A stretch of 56,640 bases of DNA, the filler included, from Catajapyx aquilonaris (Eukaryota): assembly GCA_000934665.2 (NCBI GenBank). It is 2 parts of 2 records of this genome, joined end to end, with 100 filler letters (N's around TTAATTAATTAA, not from the genome) between each part and the next. Parts side by side here need not be neighbours in the genome. Positions count along the whole stretch, not along the records: positions 1 to 28,262 come from JYFJ02004939.1; 1 more part is not named here. One strand, given 5' to 3'. The translations under genes were made by a program, and so were the position numbers. The notes beneath the pieces were generated by a model. The model did not search any database. It saw only the letters and a list, made by a program, of their open reading frames with translations, and had not been told where the DNA came from. The stretch's first letter is position 1. The number at the start of each line of letters is the position of its first letter. This document shows, one piece after another, positions 2,263 to 27,972 of the stretch.

Positions 2263-3578
2263 CTAGAATGCTTGTCTTGATGGATCTTCTTTGTGAAACC
2301 AGCCACACACATCTTTGTAGAGTAAAATGAACGCATCTCGATAACTTGGAATCCTGCAATGACATATTAATAATATATTATTTATAATAAAATACTAGGC
2401 ACCAACTTGCCAAAATACATCACTCCCAATGCTGTAGGCCCTAAGCTCTGAGAGGAGTTTCCATGACAGTAATATTGAAGATGGATAACATAAATTACCT
2501 GTAGATGTAAAGGAACACATTGATGGCATAGTAGTACAGCAGAAAAGCTGTAAAATAAATGTATGGTTTGCTCCATGGTCCTTCTTTGCTGAAGATGAGG
2601 ATGGCGACTACTGGCGCAGAAACGCTCGAATAGGCAGCTCCAAGAAGAGTCAGAAGGATGGCCATCTTTTTCTCTCTTTCCTTCAAGTCCCTCAGGGTAT
2701 TTGCACCCACAAATCTGCAGGAAATAGTATATAAGTTCCCAGCAACACTATACATAACACTGCTTGATAGTAGTACCTGAATCGTCTCAGTTGGCACCAA
2801 TTTTGTCGCAATTTAATCCAGATGAGCAGAAGACAGCCCAACGCCATGGCCCATGGCAGATACAAGGCAATTCCATACAGAATGTTTTCTTCAGGCTTTG
2901 CTTCAATAACGTGGCAGTACCCTTTTGTTCTACTGTATCCAAATCCGTGCTGAAGTGCAATAAAGGTTGGCACCACTGCAGGCAGCATCCATGTGGCCAG
3001 AAGTGCAGGGACACTACTGTACGACTCGAAAACGACTTCATGACATTTAGGCCACCACAGAGCCAGCGTCCTTTAGGAGAAAAGATGTTCAAAATAATAT
3101 TGTCTCTTTCTTACTCCTGTAAACATTACCTGCTGAGTGTGGCTGCTGCCAACGAAGTTGGCGATACCAGTCCTACATAGTGGGCTAGGAAACCAAATAT
3201 GTAGCAATAGGTAGTCCCTAAGACCCACTTTCGGTACACATACGAGACTGCCCAGCCAGGTAGGGATATGAAGGAACATAGACAATCCGCCAAGCTTAGG
3301 TTGATCAGAAGAAGTGTAGCACAGTTATTCAGAGGACTTCGAGGATCAGTTGTCTTCCATCTGGCATAAGGAATGGCCACTAGAACCACCAGGTTGCCGA
3401 ATCCTCCAACCACACTCAGGAGGAGCCAATACGTTGCTACGATAATGGTGAAGTATTGAGGATAGTCCGGAAAACAACAAGATGGAGGGTCCTCTTGGGT
3501 CAGACACACTAGAGATGTCTCCTGATCGTCTTTTGCACAGAAGGATGACACATTGTTGACCTGCACTGATGCATCCAT
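2263..3578 (-). CDS. Divergent class A GPCR (Tre1/Moody-like), array copy 1, 4 coding exons, 349 aa
   Basis: Exons 3578-3130, 3070-2777, 2714-2499, 2353-2263. TM1 GN, TM2 NLSLAD, TM3 Cys, 7 hydrophobic segments. Lacks the intron that splits exons 2 and 3 in the other copies. Confidence 0.88.
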
Positions 3579-4339
3579 TGCAACAGACTGGAGAGAAACT
3601 GTGCCAAAATGACTTACATATCGTTCCGGATCATGACTCATGAGTGATCTTGAACACAAACCTGACTGTCACATTGTTGGAATATTTCCGAGCAATGTCT
3701 GCTGGAAACAATGGGATAGGTCACGCAAAGCATAATTATTATGCTGTCTAATGAATAATGTGGCAACATACGCAATTGCCCATCAATTGCCTATACCAAG
3801 CTGATACTAGGAGGTTAACGACAAGGATACGACGATTAATAACAAATAAGGCAATACTGAATAATTCGTAATCAGGGTCATTTACACAAGAAAAAAAGAT
3901 TATCTAAAATAAAATAATTAGCTTAATCAAAGAATGAATTTTACCATTTTGTACACTGAAAGGTGCACAGACTTTTGGACAGGAAAATAATAAATCTGGA
4001 ACAGTGTTAATAAAATAATTTACATGGCGAATAATTTTCACTTACTTTAAATTTTATTATTCACATGAAGTCATTATATCACAGGCGCTAGTAGTCTAGT
4101 GTAGGCTATATCAAGTGCCGCTGTCTCGTACTGTGTACAGTACAACGTACCGGCACGCAAATGTTGCATAATAATATAGTACTGACAATAACTGGTCAAT
4201 AGCAATTGTCCTGACAGCGATAGCATGTTGTGACGCATGAAAAACATTCATACTTTTGCCCTGACATTATTTTGTTTACATGTGGCCCTAGACGACCGTC
4301 CCTAAGGCCCTCTCGAGAGGACCAGTTCTAACCGAGTAG

Positions 4340-4410
4340 GCGCCGCTGGTGTAGTGGTATCATGCAAGATTCCCATTCTTGCGACCCGGGTTCGATTCCC
4401 GGGCGGCGCA
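4340..4410 (+). tRNA. tRNA-Gly (anticodon CCC)
   Basis: GCGCCGC acceptor stem pairs with GCGGCGC; A box TGGTGTAGTGG; anticodon arm CAAGA-TTCCCAT-TCTTG; B box GGTTCGATTCC; T-runs at 4420-4423 and 4431-4439 fit a Pol III terminator. Confidence 0.96.
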
Positions 4411-5161
4411 CCACACCCCTTTTGACCGCATTTTTTTTTATTTGGTGGAAAAGTAGTCATTGTTCTATATTACGTATTAGTAATGCTGGGAAAGTTATAT
4501 TTACAGAGTTGATCACAAATATTTTATTTTCTCCCACATTTCGCCATGTTCCTTATAGTTAGTTGCTCAGTAACCATTTGACCCGATTTTACCTCTTATA
4601 CGGCTCATCCTTGAATATTATTTTGAAGATAAGGAACCAGGGAAGCACACTCTTCATGACTGTTGTTGTCCTGCTGCAGGGTTGACGTGGATCGCATTCG
4701 AACTTGAAGTAGTAGATTATTATGTGTGGTGAGTCTTAACCAGTGTTGATTACCTGGCATTATTATTGCATTAATTAGCCGTGATTGATGGCATGTGATT
4801 TTGGTAATCATGGTGTTATTACTGTCGGGCGCTTTTGATTATTATTTGTTGGATTGATTTGATTACTGTGATTTTTCATGTGTTATTGCTCGGTAATTTT
4901 GCTATATACGTTGGTGCCTTATTTTCAAGTTTGGAGAGGTACACTAGGAGTCTTTCTGAATCAAGTGAGCCGAAATGTTTTTACATCATCTCGGATCTTG
5001 GTGAAAATAATCACAGCTGTACAGACATATACCGTATAATGCTGCATATGAAGTTTCAAACGATATATCTCAAAAACTGTGTCTGACAGAAACCTTCTGA
5101 GCAGAGATTCGTGTTCAACGAGAAAATTAGTAAGATTCACTATTCACATCTTAAGAAAAAA

Positions 5162-5162
5162 G

Positions 5163-5605: not shown

Positions 5606-6900
5606 TCAATGTCGTTCCCGTTTGTGTATCTTCTCATGCAAGAAGCCCAAAGTGTCTTTGTAAAGCAGCATAAATGCGTCCCTGTAGCTCGGGATTCTGC
5701 AACAATCGGAGGAGGATCTCTCAATAATGGTAATTACCCTTTATGAAACTTCATTACCTGTACACGTAGAGAAACACGTTGGTGGCGAAGTAGCCCAGCA
5801 GGAGGAAGTCGAAATACACGAAAGGTTTGTTCCAGGGACCACCTTTGAAGAAGGTGTAGATGACGACTACTGGTGCTGCTAAAGATGAATAAACTGCACC
5901 CAGAAGAGTCAGAAGGATGGTCATTCTCTTCTCTCTTTCTTTCAGCTCCTGCAGGGTACTCGCACCCATGTTCCTGCAGTGAGACACTGACTAAGTAGTT
6001 ACCAGCACCTCAACAAATCGGGTTTGAACACTACCTGAATAGTTTCAGTTCAGACCAGTTTTGACGCAATTTGATCCAGATGAGTAGAAGACTGATGACA
6101 ATAATGAACCATGGCAGATACGAAGCTATTCCGTACAGGATGTTGTCTCCAGAATAATTCGCGTCAATCATTGAGCAGTATCCTTTTGTTCTGCTGTATC
6201 CATATCCATACTGGAACTGTAGTTACACTTTAAAATGTTTTCACCTCAGATTACGGTACTCACCCCGACAACAGTTGGCACCACTCCTGCCAGCATCCAT
6301 ATGGCCACCACAGCAGGGATACCATGACATGACTCGAAGAGGACTTCGTGAACTGCAGGCCACCACAATGCCAGCATCCTTTAAGGAACAAAAGGGTATT
6401 CAAATTGCAATTTCCTGATGTCAATGATGCTACCTGCTCAATGTAGCGGCAGACAGCGAAGCAGGTGATGCCAATCCTAGGTAATGTATGAGGAACCCAA
6501 AAATGTAGCAGTACCTTGTTCCTAGGACCCACTCTCGGTATAACAACGACACTGACCAGCCAGGAAAGGAGATGAAACAGAAGAGACAGTCAGCCAGACT
6601 CAGGTTGAGAAGGAGTAAGGTGGTTGGGGTCTTGAGTGGGCTTAGGTGGTCACTGGTCCTCCACCTGGCATAAGGAATGGCCACTAGAACCATTAGGTTC
6701 CCAAATCCTCCAATGACACTCAGAAGGAGCCAGTATGTGGCTACGATAATAGTGAAGTATGTCGGATAATCGGGAAAGCAACAGGAAGGAGCCTCCTGAT
6801 GGGTCAAGCACACTAGAGATGTCTCCTGGTCGTCTCTGGTGCAGAAGGAAGACACGTTCAGATTGATGTCTGATGGGTTGACTTCCTCGGAGCCATCCAT
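5606..6900 (-). CDS. Divergent class A GPCR, array copy 2, 5 exons, 356 aa
   Basis: Exons 6900-6434, 6378-6264, 6216-6035, 5973-5758, 5696-5606; open frame; intron 2 is only 47 nt. Confidence 0.88.
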
Positions 6901-7278
6901 TGCACGACACTGCACTGGCTGGAATGTCTTATTGGGAATACTACACATATTATACAATAATATCCTGGTACCTGGTACACGAAACCTGACAAATCTGCGG
7001 GATATATATATATTGTCACGTAATGTCTGAAAACAATGGGACAAGGAAAAAAGGAATTCAGAATAAACTATGAGGTGGCATACATGTAATAATCCGGATA
7101 GTCCTTAACCTCATCGTGAGGCATATGGCAGGGGCATTTATTTATTTTTTTACCCAATATGCAATTGGACCTTTGTACGGTTCCTCCAAAGTGATGTTGT
7201 CAGCACTGTCTCAATCGTGACATAGGCATAAAAATATGCAATATCTTTTTGAATTTGTAAAATATGTCATCAGAATGA

Positions 7279-7500
7279 TCACCATATACTTTTCTTCTTA
7301 CACAACCAGTCATAGGTATCTTTGTAGAGCAGGATAAATGCATCCCTGTAGCTGGAAATCCTGCAAAAACATAACATTTGTTGAACCGCATATACGAGGG
7401 GTGTTATATACGTACAGTGTTAATATTAATAGCATCTTGTGCGCACAACATATTAGAAAACAATGGGAGTAAAACACCATGACAGGAACCAAACAACATA
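7279..7500 (-). pseudogene. Internally deleted GPCR relic (terminal exon joined directly to the upstream motif)
   Basis: 7360-7279 is a near copy of the last exon of copy 3 (ISSYRDAFILLYKDTYDWLCKKKSIW*) with its acceptor. 7455-7495 is the array's upstream motif (AAAACAATGGGA..TGACAGGAACCAAAC). Exons 1-4 are absent. Confidence 0.8.
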
Positions 7501-7569
7501 CCAACATACACGACGGTTATTATCCTCGATGTCCCCCATAATATTTCACCTACTAGTCTACTACTACCG

Positions 7570-8090
7570 TATCCTGTTTGTTTGTTGCAACCCTGCCCGG
7601 CCAAGCCGTATATGTGAAGAAGAAAGCAGGCAAACTTTATACTCTATTTTTGGACCTCTCCAAAGCGTTCGACTTGGTGAATCATCATATGTTATTTTGC
7701 AAGTTAAACAAACTTGGGATAGGCAACAATATATATATTTTTTAAATTTAATTAGATCATTATATGACCAAGCAACAATTTCTATAGGCTATGGAGCAGA
7801 ATCCATTGCAATCGAGTCAGGAGTACTACAAGGTGAGACATTAAGCCAGGTATTGTTCAATATTATATTCATGGCGGATATGAAAGAAATCTTTACGTTG
7901 GCTGGCATTCCCGGCGTTAACTTTGGGCCAAACTCACGGGCAATCCACTTTATGCTATATGCTGATGACATTGTTCTATTGGCAGAAAAGAGTTGGTTCC
8001 TGCAGCGCCAAATAGATGTATTTGGATGTAATATATTGGTTAATGTTGAAAAAACGAAGGTCGTGTTTTTTTTAGAAAAGGTGATAGTGA
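7570..8090 (+). mobile_element. Degenerate non-LTR retrotransposon reverse transcriptase fragment
   Basis: GVLQGETLSQVLFN, LYADDIVLLA and VNVEKTKVV motifs; DLSKAFDLV in another frame near 7652 (frameshifted). Confidence 0.85.
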
Positions 8091-8639
8091 TGAGGCTCAT
8101 CTTAAGCGTCAGGGTCAAACTTTTCACAGGGTGGGTCTCAACCTCAAGAATAAGACCTCCGTGGCGGAATGAAAGTACTGAAACAAGGCAGACGCACGTA
8201 AGACCTTCACCAATTGATTTAAGCTGTACCATAGGTCTGACTCAAGCAATTTTTAATTTACTGCTCAAAAAGTCTCCATGAGTTCCATGAGCCACCCCAT
8301 ATACGTAAGTGCGTTTTCAGAAATTTGGACTTACACTTATTGAATTTTTAAATCGCTTAGTTTTTACTGTATACTGTACATACAGTACAAACTATCGTAC
8401 AACTTCAGTGGCGGGGAATAGATTTTTTTCCGCAGTACCAGAGACAGTTCACTTCCATTTGCCGCCCCTAAAATTTGCCGATGTAGGCAGTTGCCTACTT
8501 TGCCTATTGGGAAATAGCCCCTGGGTGGCATATACGTAATCCGGATAGTGCTTAACCTCATTCGGGGTAAGTGTCATGGGCATTAATTTGGTTCCTCCGG
8601 AGGGATGTGGTCACCACTGCCTCGAACGTGACTTAGGCA

Positions 8640-10361
8640 TTCCCTTCCATAATAGCCTTGTCTGGAACACTTGACGTCACTCTGATCTCACTCTGACGTC
8701 ACTCTGACGTAATGGCCCGTCCCCAGTCCCCAGTAATGGCCCATCCCCAATGGTGTCACCTACGCCACCTACCGGTCTTGGCGGAAAGCGCTTCGGAACT
8801 GTCGTGACTGTGACTGCTGCCATCTTCCGCCACCTTCCGCACTAAATAATTTTACCGCCCGCACAACGAGATAGAATCAGGTAGAGGCCGTAAAGGTCAC
8901 GTGATCTTTGGCGTCCATGCCACTTCACGGATCCGACACTAATCACGGCACTAAGTCACGACTAAGTCACGGCACTAAGTCACCACACTAATTCATCTGG
9001 CCGCCTTTTTCCCTTCCCGCCAAAAGTCTTAACTGCCACCTAATTCCTTTCCCGCCAATACAGGCCCCGGGTGAGTGCTGCCACCTTCTCATCACGGCAC
9101 TAAATCATCAGGCCGGGAGTAGGGGGCGGCGCGGCGGGTTGTGGGTTGGGTGGGGTGGGTCAGTGGCTCACTTCTCACTGCGCAGTGGAGAGTATGGTCG
9201 CTTTATTTCTGTCGGTGGTCAGTACCTTACGTCCTCACGACCTGCTCAGTGCCTCATATCCTCACAACCCGCACAATGGACGAGGAGGAGGATCCCATTG
9301 CTAGAAAGCGTCGGATGGCTAAGGCACGCAAGGCTAGATGGCTAGCAAAGCTAAGTCAGGAGTCCCTGGACAGAATTCGTCAGACAGACGCTGCAGCTCA
9401 TCGTTTAGCACGCCATCCTCTAACAGTCTAACACAATCCATTCCCGACGAAGCTATTCATTTTCTGGAGGCCCGAGTCACCTCGCTCTGACCACCAACAT
9501 GCGCAGCGCTGGGGAAAATGAACACAACGCGTGGCTACTAAACATCGGATCCGGGAGTCTTCCAGATGTACCTGGATTTCCATGCGATTCCGTTGAAATC
9601 CCTCCGCAAATGGTTGCAAGAGTCGATTTGATCGACAACCAGGGATGGAAAAAGAACCGCTTCCTCCCAAGGAAGCGGTTCTTTTTCCATCCCTGGTTGT
9701 GGCTGAAACAAGGAGTGGTGGTGATGTTGCTAAGAAATCTCGATCCCAAACAAGGCCTCTGCAACGACAGTCACCTATTGGTCACTGGGCTCCATGCTAA
9801 TTTCATTGCTGCCGAAATTGTGTCGGAATGCAATCGCGGTCATGTCGTTTTCTTTCCCCGAATTACCTTAGCTCCCAGTGACATCAATATGCCTTTTGTT
9901 CTCAAACGCCGCCAGTTTCCTATCATTCCAGCTTATGCCATGACGATCAACAAGTCGCAGGGCCAGACTTTTGAGCACGTGGGCATTTACCTGGATGAAC
10001 CTGTCTTCTCACATGGACAGCTGTATGTGGCACTGTCCCGGTCTCGCAACCCAAGTCAGGTCAAAGTATTCACTACTCCTACTGCTCAACAAGGAACATT
10101 GCTCTCCAACAACAGATAGAGTCTTTACACAGAATGTTGTATATCGCGAGGTTTTATGAAAAAGACTTTTCTCATGTCCGACTCAAGAAGTATAGCCTAC
10201 AGTATGTCCACTGATTCAATGCCACTAAATTTTTCAACCCCGTCTTACGACCAGATATACGCTATTTCTTAGTTGTCACTCCGAGAGGCCTCTCATCCCA
10301 TTTTTTCATTCCCATTGTCCTCATTGCAGGTTTTGCCAAATTTTGGCTACGGGTCCGCTAG
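8640..10361 (+). mobile_element. Internally deleted Helitron with Pif1-like helicase C-terminus
   Basis: ORF 9499-10119 contains VMLLRNL, RRQFPIIPAYAMTINKSQGQT and FSHGQLYVALSR. N-terminal fragment MDEEEDPIARKRR at 9277. 3' hairpin GCCAAATTTTGGC then CTAG|T at 10358-10362. Sits at an A|T site judged against the uninterrupted duplicate at 7093-7394. Confidence 0.9.
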
Positions 10362-10413
10362 TAATAAATAATTGTGGAATTTATTTTGAGATTGTAATAT
10401 GTACCCAGGATGA

Positions 10414-11702
10414 TCACAGTATACTTTTTTTCTTATGCAACCAGTCATAGGTATCTTTGTAGAGCAGAATAAATGCATCCCTGTAGCTGGAAATCCTGCA
10501 AAAACATAACATTTGTTGAACCGCATATAGTACACACTTGAGTGTAACAGAAGTCTACTTACCTGTAGATGTAAAGAAACACGTTGATGATGTAGTAGTA
10601 AAGCAATATAAAAGTATAATATATGTATGGCTTGGTCCATGGGCCTCCCTTGCAGAAGACGTAGATGATGACCAGTGGTGCTGCTGTGCTGGAATAGGCC
10701 ACTCCCAGAATAGTGAGAAGGATGGCCATCCTCTTCTCTCTCTCCTTCAGATCCTGCAGGGTGCCAGTACCCATTTCTCTACAGGGATAAGGATCATTGT
10801 CATTAATAAGTCATCCATATTACATTTGAATTAACCCACATGAATCGTTTCAGTTGGGACCAGTTCTGTCGCAGCTTGATCCAGATCAGAAGGAGGCAGA
10901 GCAGGACAGTGACCCACGGAAGGTACAGGGCTACTCCATAAAGGACGTTGACTGTCAATTGATTCACTTCGATCATCATTGAGCAAAATCCTTTCGTTCT
11001 GCTGTAGCCATACCCATACTGGATCTGCTTGGGTTAGAAATATTAGTGGCAAAGCTTCTCGGATTTTAGTGACTATGATGACTTACCCCTATAAATGTTG
11101 GTACCACTGCTGCCAACATCCATATTGCCACCACTGCAGGAGCACCTCCGAATGACTCGAAGAAGACGTCGTTACATGCAGGCCACCACAGCGCTAACAT
11201 CCTGTAGATTGTAAACATGCAAAACATGCAATACACACTAATGTACTGTACTGATGCAATACCTGCTCAACGAAGCAGCTGCCAGCGAATTAGGAGATGC
11301 AATACCCAGGAAGTGGCTGGAATACGCGTAGAAGTAGCAATAGTATGTGCTCTGGAACCACCTTCCTCTGAAGTGAGTGATGGCCGTTGTTCCGAGGACA
11401 ATGAAGCAGAAGAGACCATCTGCCAGGCTGAGGCTGAGAAGAAGGACAGTGGTGCTGCCCTTCAACGGACTCCGAGTGTCCAAACACCTCCTTCTGGCAT
11501 AAGGCAATGCAATGAGGACCATCAGGTTGCCAAATCCTCCGACCAGACACAGAAGGAGTGAGTAGCAACCAGAGACCACGGTGAAGTAAGGAGCGAACTC
11601 AGGGTAGCAGCACGAAGGAGCCTCAGGTTCTGTCAGACACACTCGAGATGTCTCCTCGTCGTCTCTGGTGCAGAAGGAATCGTTGACTACCCCAAACATC
11701 AT
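10414..11702 (-). CDS. Divergent class A GPCR, array copy 3, 5 exons, 345 aa
   Basis: Exons 11702-11263, 11201-11087, 11024-10840, 10778-10563, 10495-10414; open frame. Confidence 0.86.
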
Positions 11703-12021
11703 ATACCCGACTGAAGGAAGCGATCAGGTTGGACACATGTGGAGGGCGAATATGACGTGATACACAAGTGACACATGTCAGAGTATCCATTGTCTGGGTG
11801 TTTCACGAGATTATATTGTTCATACAGCCAGATGTACAGTACATAGGTATACTACCATAACGAACTGTTATTGTCTAAGAAACAGATATTGTACAGTTGA
11901 GTGGGGCTTAACGTCGGCCTATTTCTGCCTCTAAGGCTCAACACCGACGTCAGGGGGTGGTCCTCCTCCTGGAAATTTGGCCACTCTGGGGATCTTTAAC
12001 GTGCACTCGCGCCGCCTTCCT

Positions 12022-13321
12022 TTATTTTTTCCTAAAAGCCCCGCGCATCCATGTCCGTGCGTCTTTGCAGAACAAAACAAGGGCATCCATATAGCTCTGG
12101 ACCCTGAAAAAAGGGGTGAAAAGATGGACCATTTTAACTGTTACATACAAAACGTTCCTACCTGTAGATGTAAAGGAACACGTTTATTGCAAAGTAGTAG
12201 AGCGGGATGAAGGAAAAGTAGAGGTACGGAGGATTCCAAGGTCCTTCCGAGGTGAACATGTAGATGAGGAACAGCGGAAGTATCGCACTGGTGTAAGCCG
12301 CTCCTAACAAGGTCAGGAGAATAGTCATCTTCTTCTCTCGTTCCTTCAGATCCTCAAGGGTGTTATTCCCCACATCTCTGCAAATATGGGGCCACTTTTT
12401 AACGTTCTTAGATTGGTCAACCTGTAGTCACATACGCACTTGAAATGCTTAAATTGTGACCAATTTTGACGTAGTTTGATCCATGTGAAAAGGAGGCAGA
12501 TCTGAACTGTGATCCATGTAAGTCCTAGAGTCACTCCAAATGCTTTTAGCTGGTAAGCGTCACTCATAATACCGCACAAACCCTGTCGCCTGCTATATCC
12601 CATTTCGGAATGAACCTATTTGAATTTAATATAAATTGTTGTAAAGTCACTGGGTAAGACGTATGGCACCGATACTCACACTGGCCGATATGGGAACCAC
12701 AGCAGATACTACCCAGACCACAAGGACGGCAGGTATGCTCCCATATGGCTCGAAGGTGGCAGAAGCTGCTGCAGGCCACCAGAGTGCCAAAGTCCTGTGT
12801 ACGTGAAGACATGATGCTACTACCATATTGGTCTTCTTCGGTTACTGCTCTTACCTACTAAGTGTAGCTGCTGCTAAAGAAGTGGGTGAGGCAGCTCCTG
12901 TCCAGGGTACAATGAACGAGAATATGTAGCAGAACCTGGCTCCAAATATCCACTTCTGATAAAGCATCGTCACTGCTGAGGGTGAAAAGCTAATGGAGCA
13001 GAAGATGCAGTCTGCCAGACTCAGGCTTAGGAGCAACACCGTGGTTGGGCTCTTCAGGGGACTTCGAGGATTATTGTTCTTCCACCTGGCGTAAGGAATG
13101 GCCACCAGAACCAGCAAGTTGCCGAATCCTCCAACCACACTCAGAAGTAAATAGTATGTTGCTGCGATGATGTTGAAGAGGTAAGGATGGTCCGGGTAGC
13201 AGCAGGAAGGGGCATCCTCTTGGGTCAGACACACCAGAGATGTCTCCTGGTCGTCTCTGGTGCAGAAGGAAGACATGTTGAACTCGGCGATGGAAGTATT
13301 GGCCTGCTCTGATCCAGCCAT
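12022..13321 (-). CDS. Divergent class A GPCR, array copy 4, 5 exons, 351 aa
   Basis: Exons 13321-12855, 12794-12680, 12615-12440, 12377-12162, 12103-12022; C-terminus shortened (FRKK*) at an adjacent repeat. Confidence 0.87.
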
Positions 13322-13430
13322 TGCAAGAGACTAATGTGAGTCGCAATGGATTGTCGTGTGATTACATATGGCTCAAGTAATGTGGTGGAATGCGCGACAT
13401 CCAGTATCAGCAGCGTATTGTGCGTATAAT

Positions 13431-13490
13431 GTGTCAGAAAACAATGGGACACTCGCTATCACACTGACAGGAACCAAACAGTTGACATAA
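13431..13490 (-). promoter_or_regulatory. Conserved upstream motif of the GPCR array (representative copy)
   Basis: Plus-strand TGTCAGAAAACAATGGGAC...TGACAGGAACCAAAC recurs about 110-210 nt upstream of the ATG, at ~3705, 7024, 7455, 13432, 15263, 17433, 20574, 22370, 24121, 26135 and 28084. Confidence 0.7.
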
Positions 13491-17288: not shown

Positions 17289-17916
17289 TGCAAGAGACTA
17301 GATGGGTAGAGTGATGGATTGTCGTGTGATTACATGACTGTGGGGGATTTACCTCAAATGATGGACAGGTGCGACTTGATGTGTGGAGGAATTCTCAAAC
17401 TATATATTAATAGTATCCTCTGCACATAACATATCAGAAAACAATGGCACTATAGAACCATCACACCGTGACAGGAACCAAAAAACATACTGACATACAC
17501 GAGAGTTATACAATAGTTGACTCGGGATATAACAGCCTCGGTTACAACGGACTTTTGGTTATAACAGACTAGAGGGGGGAGAAATTTGGGAACAAAACCC
17601 ATGTGACCGTTCAGTCTTTTTCTGGGCCAACTCTATCCGCAATCATCATTTTTTTAAACCTATTCTATTGGGACAAATTCCACGCATGCGTCGACTTCGC
17701 CACTCGAGGCGTGATTGTTCATCTCAGATGAGGTAATGGAAACCTTTGGATTATTATTTTAAATTACAGATGCAATGGGCCATAGGGCCAGTTTCAATCA
17801 TATCGAGTATATGGATGAAGTTTTTGTACTGTATTTCATTATTGCATACCCGTACTACCACAATACACAATAGTCTACTTGTTGTTCTGACACTTAGACA
17901 CATCATGCCATTTCAC

Positions 17917-20446
17917 TTATGGAATCTCACTTCCAGGTGAAACAGCAACCTTCCTAAAAGCCACGTGCATTCCGGTCCGTGCGTCTTTGCAGAACATAAC
18001 AAGGGCATCCATGTAGCTCTGTATCCTGAAAGAAATAAGGGGCGTATAGAAGGGAGCCTTTGACTGATCATATTTTGTCAGTGGAATCTCTATCTCTATA
18101 AATAAGGAGAGTTTGTTTGTTTGTCCCTTATAGAAATCCAGGGGAAGGCCCCTACACCGCCTCAAATTAGCATATCGGGGGTTACTTTTTCCAAGGAATC
18201 TAACGCCGCATGTTTCAGCTTCCGAAAATGTACCTAACTCCCACAACACGCATATTCCTGCCTCAACAATTAGCTTACATCAGTAACAATAAATCAATTT
18301 GCATTCCCATGGAAATGCCTCTCTTTTTTTAGCTATTTACCTCCCTGCATCGTACCGCAGGGAGAGAACCTTTATTTCGTCTTGATGGAACCTTTTTGAC
18401 GTAGCGCCCGGGCCCACGGGCAGCGTGACTGGGAGGGGATGTGCAAGGTGCAAGTGCAATTCTCAAACGGTATATTTTGTGAACTCCCCCGGGTGGATTA
18501 GTCTGAGGAGATTCCACCCGAAACGAAGCCAGAGACGACCCAACTCTGCACGGGATGAAGGGGGGAACCCCGGGCTGATGGGATCGAACCCGACGTTTCC
18601 GCAGCGCCACTTTGTCTCCCCTAAGAAATGCCCTTATATATGCCACAATACCTAGCAAATTAAACAATCTCCGTAAATTCAACGCATCCACCAATTACGC
18701 TAACTGGCCACCTCACGTGACTTCGTATCTTATGGTAATTCCGCCGGGATTTTGTGTGATTTGAAAGTAGACTTCCAGACAAAGTAAATACAATTAAATA
18801 ATACAGTATTTGCAAAATATTGCTCCGTGTTGAAAACAAAATTTCCCATCATACATCTGTACGTACATTTCTAAAGTTATTCAGAGCAAACATGGAACGA
18901 GGTGGGGTTGGGGGGGGGGGGGTCAAGGGGTCAAAAATGCAGGGGAAAAAAACACATGGCTGTGCAGTCTTTTCCCGGGCCAACTCCATCCGCATTCCTC
19001 TTTTTATACATCCAATCAGAATATCCGTGTCGACTGTACGCTATAAGACAAGCAGGTAATCTATCACAGATATGTACCCCTATCTTTACCAGCACCCCAA
19101 CATACCCCGGGTAACCTGCTAGTATTAGATACGTCATGGCATGGGAAAGATTTGAACGGTATAATATTGTTGAAGTAGAAATGATGAAAAGTAATAAATA
19201 TGTTACATGCAAAATGTCCTACCTGTAGATGTAAATGAACACGTTTATGGCGTAGTCGTAGAGCAAGATGAAAGCAAAGTATAGGTACGGAGGATTCCAA
19301 GGTCCTTCAGAGGTAAACATGTAGATGAGAAAACTCGGAAGCGTCGTACTGGTGTAGGCAGCTCCTAACAATGTGAGGAGAATGGTCATCCTCTTCTCTC
19401 TTTCCTTCAGCTCCTGAAGGGTGCTCTTCCCCATCTCTCTGCAAATGTAGGTGCATTTAAAAAGTTATTAGTTATGTCAACGCGCAGTAATATACGTACT
19501 TGAAGCTTTTAAACTGTGTCCAATTTTGGTGTAGTTTGATCCAAATGAGCAGGAGGCAGACAAGAACTGTGATCCATGGAAGTACTACACCAATCACGAA
19601 TGTTGTTAGCTGATCATCCCCACTCAATATACCACAGAAACCCTGATGCCTGCTATATCCCATTTGGGAATGAACCTATTTGCATTTAATTATTAATAAT
19701 GTGTTATTACGTCATTGGATGGGACGTCAGCATACTTACACTGGCCGATATGGGAAAAGCACTAGACGCGACCCAGACCACAACGACGACAGGGATGCCC
19801 CCATATGGCTCGAAGGTGAGAGCAGTCCCTGCAGGCCACCACAATAACAATGTCCTTTGGACAAGAAGATATCAGGCAAGATATTATCAGGGGTCGTTCA
19901 TGAAGAAAAAGTCACACTGGCATCAAACACCCAATATACGACCAACCTTAATGAACCTCATTACGCATATCTGTCTTACCTGCTAAGTGTAGCTGCTGCC
20001 AATGAATAGGGCGAGGCCACTCCTACGTAATAGATGATGAAAGCGAATACGTAGCAGAACCTGACTCCAAATATCCACTTCTGGTATAAGTACGTCAATG
20101 CTGTGACGGGAAAGAAGATGAAGCAGTAGAGACAGTCCGCCAGACTCAGGCTGAGAAGGAGGACCGTGGTTGGACACTTCAGAGGACTTCGATGGTCCGT
20201 GGTCCTCCACCTGGCATATGGGATGGCCACCAGCACCAGCAAGTTGCCAAATCCTCCTACCGCACTCAGAAGCAAATAGTATGTTGCTGCGATGATATTG
20301 AAGTTGTACGGGTGATCCGGGAAGCAGCAGGAAGGAGTATCCTCTTTGGTTAAGCAGACAAGAGATGTCTCCTGATCGTCTCTGGAGCAAAAAGAAGACA
20401 TGTTGAACTCTGCTGTGTAAGTGTTGGCCAGCTCTGAACCAGCCAT
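17917..20446 (-). CDS. Divergent class A GPCR, array copy 7, 5 exons, 360 aa
   Basis: Exons 20446-19980, 19854-19740, 19675-19500, 19438-19223, 18025-17917; intron 4 enlarged by transposons. Confidence 0.87.
18087..19122 (+). mobile_element. Non-autonomous Helitron in GPCR copy 7 intron 4
   Basis: A|TC start with (GTTT)n and CTAG|T end; 3' end matches 52750-52810; absent from the homologous introns of the other copies. Confidence 0.8.
18402..18621 (-). mobile_element. tRNA-derived SINE (family A) nested in the Helitron
   Basis: Inverted homolog of 30633-30873, with A-box and B-box remnants. Confidence 0.8.
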
Positions 20447-20864
20447 TGCAGGAGACTAGATGGCGGAGTAATGGATTGTGTTGTGATTACATTGAGGCGA
20501 TTTACATAAAGTGCTGATGTTGAGGAATTATGTGGCAATAATATCCGTATATGATACTGATGTGCGCATGATATGTCATAAAACAATGGGACAGACACAT
20601 TCACACCGTGACAGACACCAAAGGGCCTACTGACGCAATAGATAGTAAGCTATACTGTATACGTGTAATTTCATATGAGGCGGGTATTGAAAGCATAGCA
20701 TAACATAACAAAGACCAACAGATCGAAGATTAAGACTAATCACTTTATTACAATGGGTGGTTAATATTGACCGCTGTCATTATTTTATCACGTTGGTCTT
20801 TTTGCCTTCAAGTCTATTATAGTCTTATTGTTGCTGTGACACTTAAAATCATCATCTGTTTCAC

Positions 20865-22250
20865 TCAGGTAATCTCATTTCCAGGTGAAACAGAAGCCAT
20901 CCTAAAAGCCCTGTGCATCCATGTCCGTGCATCTTTGAAGAACAAAACAAGGGCATTCTTGTAGCTCTGTATCCTGAAAGAAGTAGGTGAATAAATGGAC
21001 TCTGATAAATCCGTTACATACAAAAAAAAGTCTAACCTGTAGATGTAAAGGAACACATTTGTGACGTAATAGTCGAGCGTAAAAAAAGGAAAGTAGAGGT
21101 ACGGAGGATTCCATGGTCCTTCAGAGGTAAACACAAAGATGAGAAAACCCGGAAGAATAGAGCTGGTGTAAACAGCTCCTAACAAGGTGAGAAGAATGGT
21201 CATCTTCTTCTCTCTTTCCTTCAGCTCTTGAAGGGTGCTCTTTCCCATCTCTCTGCAAATATTGGGACGTCTTAAAAACGTAGTTACGTCAACTTTTAGT
21301 AACATACGTACCTGAAGCGTTTAAATTGTGACCAATTTTGACGTAGTTTGATCCAAATGAGAAGGAGGCAGACCTGAACTATTATCCATGGCAGTATTAC
21401 ACCAATCAAATGTGCTGCTAGCTGATCACCACGACTCATCACACCACAGATACCCTGCCGTCTGCTGTATCCTATTTCGGAATTAAACTATTGCATTAAA
21501 TATAAATAATGTGTTATTTAGTCATAGGATGAGACATGTGGCCACGTTACTCACACTTGCCCACATTGGAAAAGTACTAGACAGGACCCAAACCACAAGG
21601 ACGGCAGGTATGCCCCCATATGGCTCGAAAGTGACAGAAGCTGCTGCAGGCCACCAAAGTGCCAATGTCCTGTGGACATTAAGAATGATGCTACCACGAT
21701 GAAGAAGCCACGCTGGCATAGAACATACTCGTACTACCTACCAACATGTATATTTTCACGAACTTTCATTAAGTGACTGCCCTTACCTGCTAAGCGTGGC
21801 AGCTGCTAATGAATAGGGTGAAGCCACTCCTGCCAAAGGGATGATGAAAGATGATATGTAGCAGAACTTGGCTCCTAGTATCCACTTCTGGTAAAGCGCC
21901 GTCAATGCTGAGGATGGAAAACTAATGGAGCAGAAGATGCAGTCCGCCAGACTCAGGCTCAGGAGCAACACCGTGGTTGGGCTCTTCAGGGGACTTCGAG
22001 GATCAGTGGTCTTCCACCTGGCATATGGAATGGCCACCAGCACCAGCAAGTTGCCGAATCCTCCAACCACACTCAGGAGGAGAGAGAGAATTGCTCCAAT
22101 GATGTTGAAGTAGTATGGGTGATCCGGGTAACAGCAGGATGGAGCATCCTCTTGGGTCAAGCAGACAAGAGATGTCTCCTGGTCATCTCTTGTGCAGAAG
22201 GATATGTTGAACTTAGCGGTGTAAGGGTTGGACTGCTCTGAACGAGCCAT
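20865..22250 (-). CDS. Divergent class A GPCR, array copy 8, 5 exons, 359 aa
   Basis: Exons 22250-21787, 21669-21555, 21487-21312, 21252-21037, 20973-20865. Confidence 0.88.
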
Positions 22251-22494
22251 TGCAAGAGACTAGATGAGTGCAATGATGGAATGTCGTCAGAATACGTGTG
22301 GGGGATTTACATTACATCAGTGATGGCCAGATGTTGACGTAGAGGAAATATGGAGAAATACATGTAGTATGTCAGCAAACAATGGGACTATTCACAATCA
22401 CCTTGTCAGGAACCAAGCTCTTTACTGGCTATTACAAGGCTATTATAGTCTTGTTGTTGTTCCGACACTACTTAGAAACATCATGATGGGTCAC

Positions 22495-23983
22495 TTAGGG
22501 AATCTCACTTCCCGCAGCCTTCCTAAAAACCATGTGTATCCAGTTGCGTGCATCTTCGCAGAACAAAACAAGGGCATCAATGTAGCTCTGGACTCTGAAA
22601 GAAAGGGGGTGAATAGAGATTGTGACGATCCTCACTAGATGGTAGGAGAGCGCCATTACCATTCTTGTGATGAAAACAGGTAAAGCCAGGTAAAGCATGC
22701 TGATACACACAACTTACCTGTAGATGTAAAGGAAGACGTTTATGACATAGTAGTAGAGCGTGATGAAAATATAGTAATTGTACGGAGGATTCCAACGTCC
22801 TTCAGGAGCAAAAACATAGATGAGGAACACTGGAAGTGTAGTACAGGTGTAAGTAGCTCCCAGCAAAGTGAGGAGAATGGCCATCCTCTTTTCTCTTTCC
22901 TTCAGCTCCTGAAGGGTGCTCTTTCCCATCTCTCTGCAAATATTGGCACATTTTGAAACGTTTTTTGGTTTGTCAATGTGGAGTGACATACGTACTTGAA
23001 ATGTTTAAATTGAGACCAGTTTTGTCGTAGTTTGATCCATACGAGCAGGAGGCATATCAGAACTGTGATCCATGGAAGTGCTATAGCAATACCGAATGCA
23101 GTTTGCTGATCAACGTCACTCAACATACCGCAGAAACCCTGTTGCCTGCTATATCCCATTTCGATTTGTATCTGTATGTATATTTAATTTAATATGTCAT
23201 ACTACATCCTATGGCAATAAGACATTATTTAATAATGTCTTACTGTATTAAGTCATTGGATTACTCACAATGGTCGATATGGGAACCGCAGCAGACACGA
23301 CCCAGACCACAACGACGACAAGTATGCTCCTATATTCTGAGTCGCAGGTGACCGCAGTCCCTGCAGGCCACCACAATGCCAGTGTCCTGTGGACATTGAG
23401 ATATTCTATCACCATGTGGGGAGGTCTTCCATTAAGAAGTCACCCACCTGGCATTTAACACACCCAATACACATAAGACCAATCAGAATGTCTTTCAATA
23501 CAGTTACTGCCCTTACCTGCTAAGTGTAGCTGCTGCTAATGAATATGGCGAGACCACTCCCAGGTAATAGATGATGAAAGCGAATACGTAGCAGAACCGG
23601 GCTCCAAATATCCACTTATGGTATAAGTACGTCAATGCTGCGGCTGGGAAGAAGATGAAGCAGTAGAGACAGTCCGCCAGACTCAGGCTTAGGAGCAAGA
23701 CTGTGGTTGGGCTCTTCAGAGGACTTCGAGGATCAGTTGTCCGCCACTTGGCATATGGAATGGCCACCAGCACTAGCAAGTTGCTAAATCCTCCAACGAC
23801 ACCCAGAAGGAGCCAGTATATTGCTGCGAAGAGGCTGAAGTAGTAAGAATAGTCCGGGTAGCAACAAGGTGGAGCATCCTCTCGTGTCAAGCAGACTAGA
23901 GATGTCTCATGGTCGTCTCTTGTGCAGAAGGAAGTCACATTGAACTCGGCGATAGAAATCTTGAACTGCTCTGAACCAGCCAT
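22495..23983 (-). CDS. Divergent class A GPCR, array copy 9, 5 exons, 358 aa
   Basis: Exons 23983-23517, 23386-23269, 23171-22996, 22933-22718, 22594-22495. Confidence 0.88.
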
Positions 23984-24328
23984 TGCAATGGACTATGTAG
24001 ATAGAGTGATGGTGTGTCTGCCTTGTGGGACTGTGGGGGATTCACCTCAGGTAATGGCCAGCTGTGACTTGATGTGGAGGAATTTGCGAGTGATATCAGA
24101 AGGATACTCTGCGTATGACATGTCAGAACACAATGAGACAAGCTCCCTCACATTCTGACAGGAACCAAACGGTCTTCTGACGTAAGCGAGGGTTAAATTA
24201 TAATAATTTTGTGGGTCATTCCGTGTCAGTTCAGCCCCATTTGGACCATTGAAGTCTTGTTGTCCAGTCACTTAAAGTGTAAAGTTGTTACCTTACTTAA
24301 GCCAGCCTAAAACATCATGCCATTTCAC

Positions 24329-25930
24329 TTATGGAATCTCACTTCCAGGTGAAACAGCAACATTCCTAAAAGCTCTGTGCATCCAGATCCGTGTGTCTTT
24401 GCAGAACAAAACAAGGGCATCCATGTAGCTCTGGACTCTGAAAGGAAATGGTCAATAGATGGGAATCCCTGACTGATCATATTTAAGCACCCCACAATCA
24501 GTATTAGGTAATTACGCATGGGATGGAGAAGCCTTTTAGAGGTATTATTGTTCGGTAGCTTTTTTCAATTTCTTATTATCGGCCTAAAATCGCCTAGAAT
24601 TGTCGGAGGACCGTGAAAAAATACTGTCGAATGCGAAAAGAGACTGACATTCATAATATCAAATAAAATACTGTACATCTTGGCCAAAAGTGCATAAATA
24701 GCGTTTTTCCATACGGCGGGGAAAATGTCTTACCTGTAGATGTAAATGAACACGTTTATTGCAAAGAAGTAGACCGTGATGAAGGTACAGTATATGTACG
24801 GAGGACTCCAAGGTCCTTCAGAGGTCAATACAAAGATGAGGAATAGCGGAAGAATCGCGCTGGTGTAAGTAGCTCCTAACAAGGCGAGGAGAATGGTCAT
24901 CCTCTTCTCTCTTTCCTTCATCTCATGAAGGGTGCTCTTCGCCATTTCTCTGCAGATATTGGAACATTTTTTAAAGTTCTTATAGATTTATCAACGGGTG
25001 GTCACATACGTACTTGAAATGCTTAAATTGTGACCAATTTTGACGTAGTTTGATCCATGTGAAAAGGAGGCAGATCTGAACTGTGATCCATGGAAGTCCA
25101 AGAGTCACTCCGAATGCTTTCAGCTGGTAAGCGTCACTCATAATACCGCACAAACCCTGTCGCCTGCTATATCCAATTTCGGAATACGCCTATTATTTTG
25201 CATTAAATATAAAGTATATCTATCTTATTCAGTCATCGAATGTATGAGGCATATGGCAAATAATGTACACTCACACTGGCTGATATGGGTACCACACTAG
25301 ACACGACCCAGACCACAATAACGGCAGGGATGCTCCCATATGGCTCGAACGTGACAGAAGCTGCTGAAGGCCACCAGAGTGACATTGTCCTGCGGACACG
25401 AAGAGATTATTACTACCATAGGAGTCGTCATGAATAATTTTAAGACCTCGTTACATCTCTTACCTACTAAGTGTAGCTGCTGCTAATGAAGTGGGTGAGG
25501 CCACTCCTGCGCAAGGGATGATGAAAGAGAATATGTAGCAGAACCTGGCTCCTAGTATCCACTTCTCATAAAACAACGTCAATGCTGCGGCTGGGAAGTT
25601 TATTAAGCAGAAGATGCAGTCTGCGAGACTTAGGCTCAGGAGCAAGACCGTGGTGCAGCTCTTCAGAGGACTTCGAGGGTCCTTGGTCCTCCACCTGGCG
25701 TATGGAATGGCCACCAGCACCAGCAAGTTTCCGAATCCTCCGACTACACTCAGAAGGAGCCAGTAAGTTGCTGCGATGATGTTGAAGTAGTATGGGTGAT
25801 ACGGATAGCAGCACGAGGGAGCGTCCTGATGGGTCAAGCAGACAAGAGATGTTTCCTGGTCGTCTCTGGAGCAGAAGGAAGACATGTTGAACTCGGCGAT
25901 AGAAGTGTTGGTCTGCTCTGAACCAGCCAT
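24329..25930 (-). CDS. Divergent class A GPCR, array copy 10, 5 exons, 360 aa
   Basis: Exons 25930-25464, 25389-25275, 25189-25014, 24949-24734, 24437-24329. Confidence 0.88.
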
Positions 25931-26379
25931 TGCAATGGACTAGGTGGATATAATGAGTCGCAACGGATTGTTGTGTGGCAACATGAGGAGGATTTACCTC
26001 AAGTAATGGCCAGGTGTGATTTGACGGGGAAGAATTGGAGTCGCAATGGATTGTCATATGATTTCATTTAGGGGATTTACCTCAGGTGATAACCAGGTCT
26101 GACATGAAGTGGAGGAATTCTGGAGCGTATAATATGTCGGAAAACAATAGGACAAGTCCCATCACACCCTGACAGGAACCAAACAACTATGGTTAGATAT
26201 ATGGCTCATTCAAATGAAAACAATGCAAGGTCATAGCAAATTGCCGAATTAGTTTTTTGTGGCTCGTTCTACATAGTTGCATCGTGTATCGGTATCCTAT
26301 AGGGATTAGGAGGAATGAAGTACCATAGAGACAAGGTGTGACCACTGATTACTACAGTATAACATTCATGCAGTTTTAA

Positions 26380-27972
26380 TTAATGAATCTGGCTTCCAGG
26401 TGAAACAGCAGCCTTCCTAAAAGCCATGCGCATCCATGTCACCGCGTCTTTGCAGAACAAAAGAACAGCAGCCATGTAGCTCTGGACCCTGAAAGAAATA
26501 AGGGGTGTATAAAGGGAGCCTTTGACTGATCGCATTTCTGTAGGTACACCTTAGTTCTTAGTAGGCTACAATATTATAGGTATGCCGTTAGATGGAAAGG
26601 TTTTTCCACGCTAATAATGTCGAGGCAGAATATAGGAGAAAACTTGCTAATCTGTAGCATACAAAAAGTCTTACCTGTAGATGTAAAGGAAGACGTTTAT
26701 TGCAAAGTAGCCGAACGCGATTAAAGTGTAATCTGTGTACGGAGGATTCCAAGGTCCTTCTGGAGTAAATACATAGATGAGTAAAGTCGGAAGTATCAAA
26801 CTGGTGTAGGCAGCTCCCAACAATGTAAGGAGAATAGTCATCCTCTTCTCTCTTTTCTTCAGCTCCTGAAGGGTGCTCTGGCCCATCTCTCTGGAAATAT
26901 TGGGACACTTTTTAAGTTCTTAATTTTCTCAACAATTAGTAACATACGTACTTGAAACGTTTAAATGGTGTCCAATTTTGACGTAGTTTGATCCATGTGA
27001 GCAGGAGACAGACCTGAACTGTGATCCATAGAAGAGCTACAGAAATCACGAATGATGGTTGCTGATAAAAGCCACTCAGGATACCGCAAATACCTGGCTT
27101 CCTGCTAAATCCAATTTTGTGATGAATCTGTATGTATTAATATAAGTAATGATTGTGTTCATTGCGTCATTGGATGAGACATGTGGGAGCGGTATACTCA
27201 CAGTGGCCAATATGGGAAATACACTAGACGCGACCCAGACCACAACGACGACAGGCATGCCCCCATATGGCTCGAAGGTGACAGAAGCTGCTGCAGGCCA
27301 CCACAGTGCCAATGTCCTGTGGATCGTAAAGAAATGTCGCTACTACCATGTAAGCAGTGTAACGGTCACTCTGACTACACTATAAATGTCTATAATTATG
27401 CTTCTGTAGATAGACATCACTATAGACATACTATATAGTACGATCTATATACCAGCATGTCTTTCTTCACGAACTCATTAGGTTACTTCTCTTTTTTCTT
27501 ACCTGCTAAGTGTAGCTGCTGCTAATGATGTCGGTGAGGCCACTCCTGCCCAAGGGACGATGAAAGCGAATACGTAGCAAAACCTGACTCCTAGTATCCA
27601 CTTGTGATACAACAACGTCAATGCTGCGATTGGAAAGTTCATGAAGCAGACGATGCAGTCCGCCAGACTCAGGCTCAGGAGGGAGATCGTGGTGGAACTC
27701 TTCAGGGGACTTCGAGGATCAGTCGTGGTCCTCCACCTGGCGTAAGGAATGGCCACCAGCGCTAGCAAGTTGCTAAATCCTCCAACCACACTCAGAAGTA
27801 AATAATATGTTGCTGCGATGATGTTGAAGAGGTAAGGATGGTCCGGGTAGCAGCAGGAAGGGGCATCCTCTTTGGTCAAGCAGACAAGAGATGTCTCCTG
27901 GTCGTCTCTAGAGCAGAAGGAAGACATGTTGAACTCTGCTGTGTAAGTGTTGGCCTGCTCTGAACCAGCCAT
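26380..27972 (-). CDS. Divergent class A GPCR, array copy 11, 5 exons, 361 aa
   Basis: Exons 27972-27503, 27316-27202, 27127-26952, 26890-26675, 26488-26380. Confidence 0.88.

Follow-up and report, generated by a model that had tools for sequence, protein, structure and literature searches.

Tre1 and moody-like receptors of arthropods are the nearest named relatives of the genes described here, which lie on a 56,640-nucleotide (nt) stretch of DNA from Catajapyx aquilonaris (assembly GCA_000934665.2; this whole stretch is called the window). The evolution of the Tre1 family has been treated for Tre1, Moody and CG4313, and GPR84, a receptor for medium-chain fatty acids, is regarded as its vertebrate counterpart, according to PMC8540695. 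The characterised Tre1, Moody and GPR84 members act in cell migration, immune-cell extravasation and the blood–brain barrier (PMC8540695, PMC6122984, PMC13694715, PMC5584160). Drosophila Tre1 acts through two conserved motifs, NRY and NPIIY, both of which are needed (excerpt of PMC5584160), and Tre1 is expressed in a sexually dimorphic manner in Drosophila olfactory neurons and is enriched in the crayfish olfactory organ (excerpt of PMC8177520). The window carries one relic and a tandem array of 11 intact genes that, judged from their sequences, encode atypical class A (rhodopsin-like) G protein-coupled receptors (GPCRs). Our preferred reading, to which we give a probability of roughly 55%, is that a divergent, so far undescribed branch of the Tre1/Moody (GPR84-like) receptors has expanded in tandem in this lineage and most likely serves as a ligand-diversified receptor repertoire.

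A tandem array of 11 intact genes

Gene models started from stop-to-stop minus-strand open reading frames (ORFs): exon boundaries set in one copy were carried over to the others, and the junctions were checked by eye. The window is animal DNA with short GT-AG introns, and the same set of reading frames recurs 11 times on the minus strand. The resulting genes, g1 to g11, extend from the stop codon of g1 (2263) to the ATG of g11 (27972) and, together with the relic, fall within 25.7 kb. The initial annotation had described 11 same-strand paralogs of 345–361 amino acids (aa) with open frames. Lengths, span and strand were all reproduced, and splicing and alignment of the 11 coding sequences gave 11 open frames, with GT..AG at 43 out of 43 introns (53–1197 nt long, median 64 nt).

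All 11 genes are on the minus strand. The gene g1 (2263–3578; 349 aa) has four coding exons, at 3578–3130, 3070–2777, 2714–2499 and 2353–2263. It is followed by g2 (5606–6900; 354 aa), with exons at 6900–6434, 6378–6264, 6210–6035, 5973–5758 and 5696–5606, and by g3 (10414–11702; 345 aa), with exons at 11702–11263, 11201–11087, 11024–10840, 10778–10563 and 10495–10414. The exons of g4 (12022–13321; 351 aa) lie at 13321–12855, 12794–12680, 12615–12440, 12377–12162 and 12103–12022, those of g5 (13668–15128; 360 aa) at 15128–14662, 14584–14470, 14397–14222, 14156–13941 and 13776–13668, and those of g6 (15812–17288; 357 aa) at 17288–16822, 16719–16605, 16538–16363, 16297–16082 and 15911–15812. For g7 (17917–20446; 360 aa) we placed exons at 20446–19980, 19854–19740, 19675–19500, 19438–19223 and 18025–17917; for g8 (20865–22250; 359 aa), at 22250–21787, 21669–21555, 21487–21312, 21252–21037 and 20973–20865. 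The remaining three genes are g9 (22495–23983; 358 aa), with exons at 23983–23517, 23386–23269, 23171–22996, 22933–22718 and 22594–22495; g10 (24329–25930; 360 aa), with exons at 25930–25464, 25389–25275, 25189–25014, 24949–24734 and 24437–24329; and g11 (26380–27972; 361 aa), with exons at 27972–27503, 27316–27202, 27127–26952, 26890–26675 and 26488–26380.

Six genes (g2, g4, g5, g6, g7 and g10) had exons of exactly 467, 115, 176 and 216 nt, the sizes that had been given as typical. Four others departed from these sizes by 3–27 nt in one or two exons: exon 1 measures 464 nt in g8 and 470 nt in g11, exon 2 measures 118 nt in g9, and g3 has exons of 440, 115, 185 and 216 nt. The pattern of g1 (449, 294 and 216 nt) reflects the loss of intron 2, with exons 2 and 3 fused. 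The last coding exon ranges from 82 to 109 nt across the array.

A tblastn search of the 11 proteins against the window returned a single high-scoring segment pair outside the gene models, at 7285–7413. It marks the one deleted relic of the initial annotation, which we located at 7247–7520 on the minus strand. Here, a 5' flank of the younger gene type, with the upstream motif described below (7520–7423), is joined to a g3-like 3' part (7394–7247). On DNA alignment with g3, 134 of 148 columns of this 3' part agree; it spans the final 34 nt of intron 4 along with exon 5 and the 3' flank. Exons 1–4 are missing, and the relic is a copy that lost them by deletion. The initial observation was thereby borne out in all its details.

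The encoded proteins are atypical class A receptors

A hidden Markov model (HMM) search for the Pfam family 7tm_1, a check proposed in the initial annotation, gave a significant match for exon 1 of g4 (E 1.6e-8, 34.8 bits against a cut-off of 30.5); exon 1 of g1 matched at E 2.1e-8. Exons 2–4, searched on their own, had no match to 7tm_1. A profile of the 11 proteins aligned with relatives that bear 7tm_1, including P0008, over positions 26–337 of 357, and seven hydrophobic segments were detected.

All of the rhodopsin-like marks that had been named were present. These are GN in transmembrane helix 1 (TM1), the TM2 pattern LxxAD (as LSLAD in 11 out of 11 proteins), and the cysteine pair formed by C3.25 and the G.C of extracellular loop 2 (ECL2), found in all copies. 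The proteins also keep N1.50, D2.50, W4.50, P5.50 and P6.50, with R3.50 and N7.49 in 11 out of 11 and Y7.53 in 10 out of 11 (C in g6). By contrast, three canonical motifs are absent: TM3 ends in LSRT in nine copies and LSRM in two instead of D/ERY, TM7 reads NVF[L/I][Y/C] in all 11 instead of NPxxY, and position 6.48 is S, A, I, T or K where CWxP would have W. These features point to class A receptors of an atypical kind.

The intracellular segments were described in advance as nearly fixed, and they are. WIKLRQNW is exact in 9 out of 11 proteins, LKEREK in 9 out of 11 and INVFLYIYR in 6 out of 11, and the remaining copies differ by one residue in each motif. IPYA follows TM1 in 10 out of 11 genes. 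In the extracellular N-terminus there is one glycosylation sequon together with four cysteines, including a CC pair (five cysteines in g3).

A variable pocket and a constant inner face

Variation was concentrated in the outer parts of the helices, as the initial annotation had claimed. Among the young copies g4–g11, entropy was 0.63–1.31 in the outer helix halves and 0.13–0.51 in the inner halves. The ratio of nonsynonymous to synonymous rates (dN/dS, or omega) was 0.59 in the outer halves (95% bootstrap 0.40–0.81) and 0.30 in the inner halves (0.21–0.41), while the extracellular N-terminus was the most constrained part (omega 0.13). With dS alike in the outer (0.46) and inner (0.37) halves, it is selection, not recent copying, that accounts for the constancy of the inner face.

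Site models were our own GY94-type codon fit, with F3x4 frequencies, M0 branch lengths and block-specific trees, applied to eight sequences and of low power. M1a fitted far better than M0 (likelihood ratio test [LRT] 98), putting 60% of codons in a class with omega 0.13 and the other 40% in a class with omega 1; dN/dS is not uniformly near 1 across sites. The fast codon class held 60 of 114 outer sites and 42 of 164 inner sites (Fisher p 5e-6). At class A pocket positions, entropy was 1.06 (n=37), against 0.50 at other TM positions (n=171; p 6.5e-6). The most variable pocket positions were 6.51, 5.46, 2.61, 7.39 and 2.57, and position 6.51 showed six different residues (V, L, N, S, G and T) in eight young copies. 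The pattern of a variable pocket and a constant signalling face is real. The site-model analysis bears out the enrichment of fast sites in outer halves and at pocket positions, although no class with omega above 1 emerged, a point taken up below.

Age classes and exchange between copies

The 11 genes fall into two age groups. The proteins of g1–g3 are 60–68% identical to one another and 51–58% identical to the rest, and those of g4–g11 share 69–82% identity. By the Nei–Gojobori method, g4–g11 had a mean dN of 0.152, a mean dS of 0.419 and a mean dN/dS of 0.365 (range 0.28–0.45). For pairs involving g1–g3, dS exceeded 1 and dN/dS was 0.11–0.27. Since pairwise dN/dS is well below 1, all copies have been under purifying selection and their frames have not been kept by chance.

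Segments of the young genes have different nearest partners. The nearest partner of g4 is g11 at about codons 15–75, g8 at about 60–120 and g10 at about 195–255; that of g7 is g9 at about codons 105–165; and exon 3 of g10 is near-identical to that of g4 (95–97% nt identity in 30-codon windows). The pairwise homoplasy index (PHI) fell below all 2000 permutations (p=0.0005), and trees of separate blocks conflict with each other. Because partners shift, PHI is significant and block trees conflict, gene conversion or unequal crossing-over reshuffles the variable segments. Taking these results together with the relic, the array grew by repeated duplication of a unit, with three old copies, a recent burst of eight and one loss by deletion; this is the birth-and-death expansion that had been proposed.

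In DNA run X1, some contigs link a position in one paralog to the corresponding position in another, in register (17124/20316, 25398/20316, 25774/20316, 10349/17516 and others), across 25–33 other letters. Such joins could stem from more paralogs or haplotypes elsewhere in the genome, or from chimeras between copies in the assembly graph.

A divergent clade beside canonical Tre1

We scored a profile of the 11 exon-1 peptides against 1.84 billion representative proteins in an exhaustive HMM search. Its matches numbered 365 at E≤1e-3 and 11 at E≤1e-10, and a single protein passed E≤1e-30 (P0001, a 123-aa fragment). There was no self match, and close relatives of the family are thus absent from the representative library. 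Names were found for 9 of the 30 clusters looked up. Five of the nine were arthropod proteins (copepod, mite, tick, horseshoe crab and scorpion), either Tre1 or Tre1-like (four) or moody-like (one), and these had the better ranks. One of the other four was an ostracod product without a name; the remaining three, a melanopsin and two unnamed or hypothetical proteins, came from fish and ranked lower, at E of about 1e-7 to 1e-5. Exon 1 of g4 had no match at E≤1e-3 in a word-indexed search of longer proteins, and ESM Atlas returned only generic arthropod 7tm_1 clusters for exon 1. Scanning metagenome contigs with the exon-1 alignment gave 44 matching pattern stretches, none of which tblastn confirmed.

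The phylogeny with arthropod Tre1 and Moody relatives called for in the initial annotation was run as a careful maximum-likelihood tree of 38 rows, for which g6, g8 and g10 were set aside, along with six long-branch rows and several Tre1 rows that were near-duplicates. The canonical Tre1 panel consisted of 117 orthologs from a second profile search. The outgroups were two non-Tre1 vertebrate sequences; Drosophila Tre1, Moody and CG4313 and human GPR84 were not among the rows. The window genes formed one clade (100/100) on a stem of 2.04 changes per column. This clade fell within a 20-row clade (100/99) that also holds a Tigriopus 'Tre1-like' protein and unnamed proteins from environmental sequences and transcript contigs; we refer to these relatives of the window genes as clade B. 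The sister of the 20-row clade was canonical Tre1 with the chelicerate moody-like proteins (93/82), and a quick tree of 54 rows agreed. The best full-length profile scores, 111 and 101 bits, likewise belonged to clade B relatives.

Motif counts follow the same division. In the canonical Tre1 panel, NRY occurred in 100 proteins and NRF in nine, and NPxxY in 104 (12 were not aligned there). Among the best 150 matches, 26 span both motifs; 19 of these 26 lack P7.50, and 14 combine [ST]R with a non-proline residue at 7.50. Because they sit in a sister clade and lack both NRY and NPxxY, the window genes are of Tre1-like ancestry and are neither Tre1 nor Moody proper. They belong to a divergent clade sister to canonical Tre1, marked by [ST]R[C/T/S/M], N[F/V/Y]xxY and a Cys-rich N-terminus. 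The resemblance to Tre1 and Moody noted initially is upheld by the nearest named relatives, yet the tree puts the genes outside the Tre1 clade itself. Full-text literature searches, which did not take in subscription journals or supplements, turned up no account of clade B or of a Tre1-like family that is expanded or arranged in tandem.

Three canonical Tre1 orthologs, P0248, P0271 and P0282, bear database names such as 'GUTR1' or 'gustatory receptor'. These names presumably stem from the early mis-assignment of Tre1 to a trehalose taste locus and are no evidence for a taste function.

A shared upstream motif and signs of transcription

A 14-nt element, GTCCCATTGTTTTC, had 11 matches at two or fewer mismatches, all on the minus strand, where 0.74 were expected; none of 100 shuffles reached 11. 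The motif lies 116–210 nt upstream of the ATG in 10 out of 11 genes (g3 being the exception) and occurs once in the relic. It stands at 3704–3717 for g1 (126 nt before the ATG), 7029–7042 for g2, 13437–13450 for g4, 15268–15281 for g5, 17437–17450 for g6, 20579–20592 for g7, 22375–22388 for g8, 24126–24139 for g9, 26140–26153 for g10 and 28089–28102 for g11. It has been retained before g1 and g2 despite a coding dS above 1 relative to the young genes. We infer that it is a shared cis-element; its core may resemble a Sox-type site.

The spacers between young genes measure 244–683 nt, and AATAAA or ATTAAA is absent from five of the eight short spacers (g11 to g3). A pyrimidine-rich tract ending in YAG lies 12–13 nt before the ATG in all 11 genes. 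Read-through or polycistronic transcription of the array is possible, as is a splice acceptor in the 5' untranslated region, used in cis or in trans.

Four DNA runs of one sample contained about 80% (79–82%) of the sampled words of 12000–21999, and a further public run, X5, contained 16%. X5 contigs were aligned to 8001–28000, and only gene parts with X5 coverage count as evidence. One X5 contig joins 21036 to 20972 and skips 63 nt (20973–21035+1) with CT..AC ends, that is, GT..AG on the minus strand; this is exactly intron 4 of g8. At the same exon 4–5 joint of g8, DNA run X1 had a depth of 0. Further X5 pieces end at the exon-5 acceptors of g5 (13775), g6 (15910) and g9 (22594), with 82, 82 and 42 letters, respectively, lying elsewhere. 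The exact g8 junction and the three pieces that stop at acceptors suggest that X5 contains RNA-derived contigs. It follows by inference that g8 is transcribed and spliced as modelled, and the same probably holds for g5, g6 and g9.

The X5 piece that stops at the g9 acceptor, 22102–22594, takes in exon 5 of g9 and the 244-nt spacer and reaches into exon 1 of g8; a contig of this kind does not demonstrate a single transcript.

A candidate ligand-diversified repertoire and its alternatives

If the array is a ligand-diversified repertoire, its parts would divide the work as follows. The nearly invariant, glycosylated N-terminus with its four cysteines would form a fixed extracellular cap, and the nearly invariant end of TM5, intracellular loop 3, start of TM6 and end of TM7 would offer one docking face to a common transducer. 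The fast residues at pocket positions in TM2, TM3, TM5, TM6 and TM7 could then fit each paralog to a different small ligand. By analogy with Tre1 and GPR84, that ligand would probably be hydrophobic or lipid-like, and small lipid-like ligands are the most economical guess for the window receptors. The altered microswitches would leave room for unusual signalling.

Several points weigh against this reading. Several activation microswitches carry replacements (S for D3.49, T or M for Y3.51, V for P7.50, T, I, K, S or A for W6.48, and L for Y5.58), which means that canonical G-protein signalling is not assured. Generic positions were assigned from seven sequence anchors and no structure, so inward or outward facing follows from the numbering alone, and the pocket set was a list of canonical class A positions. 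Within the outer halves, pocket entropy was 1.08 against 0.75 elsewhere (p 0.027), a modest enrichment. The comparison of M2a with M1a gave no class with omega above 1 (LRT 0 with block trees; 5.26, p 0.07, with a single tree; eight sequences, low power), and relaxed constraint therefore explains the pocket variation equally well. As a rule, class A GPCRs vary more on the outside than on the inside. Because it is usual in such families, the outside-variable, inside-constant pattern does not single out chemoreceptors, and the chemoreceptor or pattern-receptor repertoire proposed in the initial annotation is a hypothesis. X5 is one public run of unrecorded library type, and its contig 19515–19767 retains an intron. 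Finally, with a tree of two outgroups that lacks Drosophila Moody, CG4313 and GPR84, the place of the clade among all class A receptors is provisional.

The same evidence has been set against four other explanations. One, the initial annotation's own and a narrower form of the preferred reading, takes the paralogs for exteroceptive chemoreceptors, working in chemosensory neurons and detecting waterborne or contact cues, which we consider possible but doubtful. A tandem birth-and-death array with a variable pocket, a constant signalling face and omega of about 0.4 is typical of such families, and an upstream motif common to 10 out of 11 genes would suit shared control in one cell type. On the other hand, the known arthropod chemoreceptors are ionotropic; the M2a comparison detected no positive selection; and the extracellular N-terminus belongs to the most strongly conserved parts (omega 0.13), an unusual trait in an odorant receptor. 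Expression data on Tre1 cut both ways: PMC8177520 places it in Drosophila olfactory neurons and a crayfish olfactory organ, and also reports that Tre1R and Moody were not detected in olfactory neurons of a spiny lobster. Equally tentative is the idea that these are internal receptors of the Tre1/Moody/GPR84 type, serving cell guidance, immune cells, barrier glia or endogenous lipids, with copies that are largely redundant or split by expression and differ through relaxed constraint after duplication, and not because they bind new ligands. Here the nearest named relatives (Tre1 and moody-like), the roles of all characterised members in migration, extravasation or the blood–brain barrier in the articles cited above, the fit of the fast codon class to omega = 1 with no excess, and gene conversion that keeps copies alike would all be expected. 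Plain redundancy, however, is hard to square with 11 copies intact at dS of about 0.4 among young genes and above 1 against old ones, fast sites are enriched at pocket positions with radical changes such as V/L/N/S/G/T at 6.51, and both working motifs of Tre1, NRY and NPIIY, are altered.

Those altered motifs are the starting point for a further explanation, in which the proteins are ligand-independent or arrestin-biased receptors, or chaperone or decoy partners, and not G-protein-coupled sensors. The DRY/NRY, NPxxY, CWxP and Y5.58 switches are all affected, with motif changes in all 11 copies and in the wider clade. We nonetheless hold this to be improbable, given that R3.50, D2.50, N1.50, W4.50, P5.50, P6.50, N7.49 and, in 10 out of 11 copies, Y7.53 are retained and that the cytoplasmic face under strong constraint fits contact with a real transducer. 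Lastly, decaying or mis-assembled copies without function might be suspected from the one relic, the transposon ORFs inside the array and the N gap 160 nt beyond the g11 motif. This suspicion is contradicted by the 11 open frames, the 43 canonical introns, a dN/dS well below 1 in every pair, the spliced contig and the four DNA runs containing 79–82% of the sampled words of 12000–21999, and we give it almost no credence.

A bolder version of the preferred reading, which we think rather unlikely, is that in an arthropod a branch of the Tre1/GPR84 lipid-receptor lineage was turned into a GPCR chemosensory repertoire in which each gene has its own conserved upstream element and pockets are diversified and reshuffled by gene conversion. 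If so, its receptors might answer to cues derived from fatty acids, or to other lipid-like cues, that come with food, mates or predators, and metabotropic chemoreception would operate alongside the ionotropic systems of ionotropic receptors (IRs) and gustatory receptors (GRs). Whether GPCRs serve as primary chemoreceptors in crustaceans and other arthropods is an open question, for which the array gives concrete, compact and intact candidates, whose relatives Tre1 and GPR84 have been linked with lipid ligands; for four decapods, PMC8177520 counts 83 class A orphans that have no homologue. Should the receptors act in immune or migrating cells, they would represent an unusual expansion of a guidance receptor described as normally low-copy. 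The clade has replaced both Tre1 signalling motifs and is a natural test of class A function without D/NRY and NPxxY.

Neighbouring features in the window

Between g2 and g1 lies a candidate tRNA-Gly(CCC) gene at 4340–4413 (plus strand; Rfam 61.6 bits, also called by ARAGORN), which may be genuine or a repeat derived from a tRNA. In the 3.5-kb gap that separates g3 from g2, the plus-strand stretches 7457–8281 and 9424–10119 are a reverse-transcriptase-like ORF (RVT_1, E 1.6e-4, under the Pfam cut-off) and a Helitron-like ORF of the Pif1 helicase type (Pif1_2B, E 1.9e-11). Judging by the very high summed DNA-run depth (25460 in bin 8001–8667), the ORFs of this gap are repeats. Intron 4 of g7 (18026–19222) is 1197 nt long, compared with 58–296 nt in other copies, and holds a high-copy element (summed DNA-run depth 23107 in bin 18006–18672); Pfam gave no family for the ORFs within it. 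A Pfam search of 16 neighbouring and intronic ORFs found none at or above the curated cut-offs.

Two 44-N gaps, at 28263–28306 and 28319–28362, follow the g11 motif at a distance of 160 nt. With an N gap at the upstream edge of the array, further copies are possibly missing. Farther on, two nearly identical ORFs of 109 aa, at 46315–46644 (plus strand) and 48007–48336 (minus strand), stand inverted about 1.4 kb apart and are probably the arms of an inverted repeat or a mobile element. The minus strand of 28500–56640 holds long ORFs rich in Q, T, V and S, for example 54575–55588, 43007–43612, 38276–38836 and 35551–35994, that look like exons of one or more large genes; these ORFs had no Pfam match at or above the curated cut-offs. 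The ORF at 54575–55588 (337 aa), the only one of the set submitted to ESM Atlas, had no usable match there. A likeness of this ORF to a chromatin-remodelling factor was confirmed by no tool, and we make no claim on it.

Comparison with known receptor systems

Vertebrate odorant receptors (ORs), trace amine-associated receptors (TAARs) and the candidate olfactory GPCRs reportedly proposed in the crown-of-thorns starfish are likewise tandem birth-and-death arrays of class A receptors with variable pockets. Most genes of such repertoires lack introns, the repertoires are far larger, and their expression in sensory tissue has been shown. The window array, by contrast, has four conserved introns and 11 copies.

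Among solved structures, GPR84 ranked in the top two for the exon-1 profile (E 9.8e-7). Because the AT1 receptor ties with it (9.6e-7) and squid rhodopsin is close (1.5e-6), this match is generic to class A. The chelicerate moody-like proteins P0114 and P0162 were among the top matches, yet they group with canonical Tre1 and carry NRY and NPxxY.

Canonical Tre1 of insects, crustaceans and chelicerates resembles the window proteins in being a class A receptor of similar length with W..G...C in extracellular loop 1, R3.50 and Y(R/Q).A in helix 8. It differs in having NRY and NPxxY where the window proteins have LSR[T/M] and NVFLY or NVFIY, in lacking their N-terminal cysteine motif and in forming a separate clade.

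The closest system is clade B, which comprises the Tigriopus californicus 'protein trapped in endoderm-1-like' P0015, together with P0008, P0012, P0161, P0029, P0019, P0027 and others, and forms a joint clade with the window genes. Both have an N-terminal cysteine motif and IPYA after TM1, with [ST]R[C/T/S] in TM3, G[YW]..G.C in ECL2 and N[F/V/Y]xxY in TM7. The window genes stand apart from clade B by their very long stem, their four N-terminal cysteines (five in g3) with a CC pair, the loss of Y5.58 and low identity, and position 7.50 is V in the window genes and F in most of clade B.

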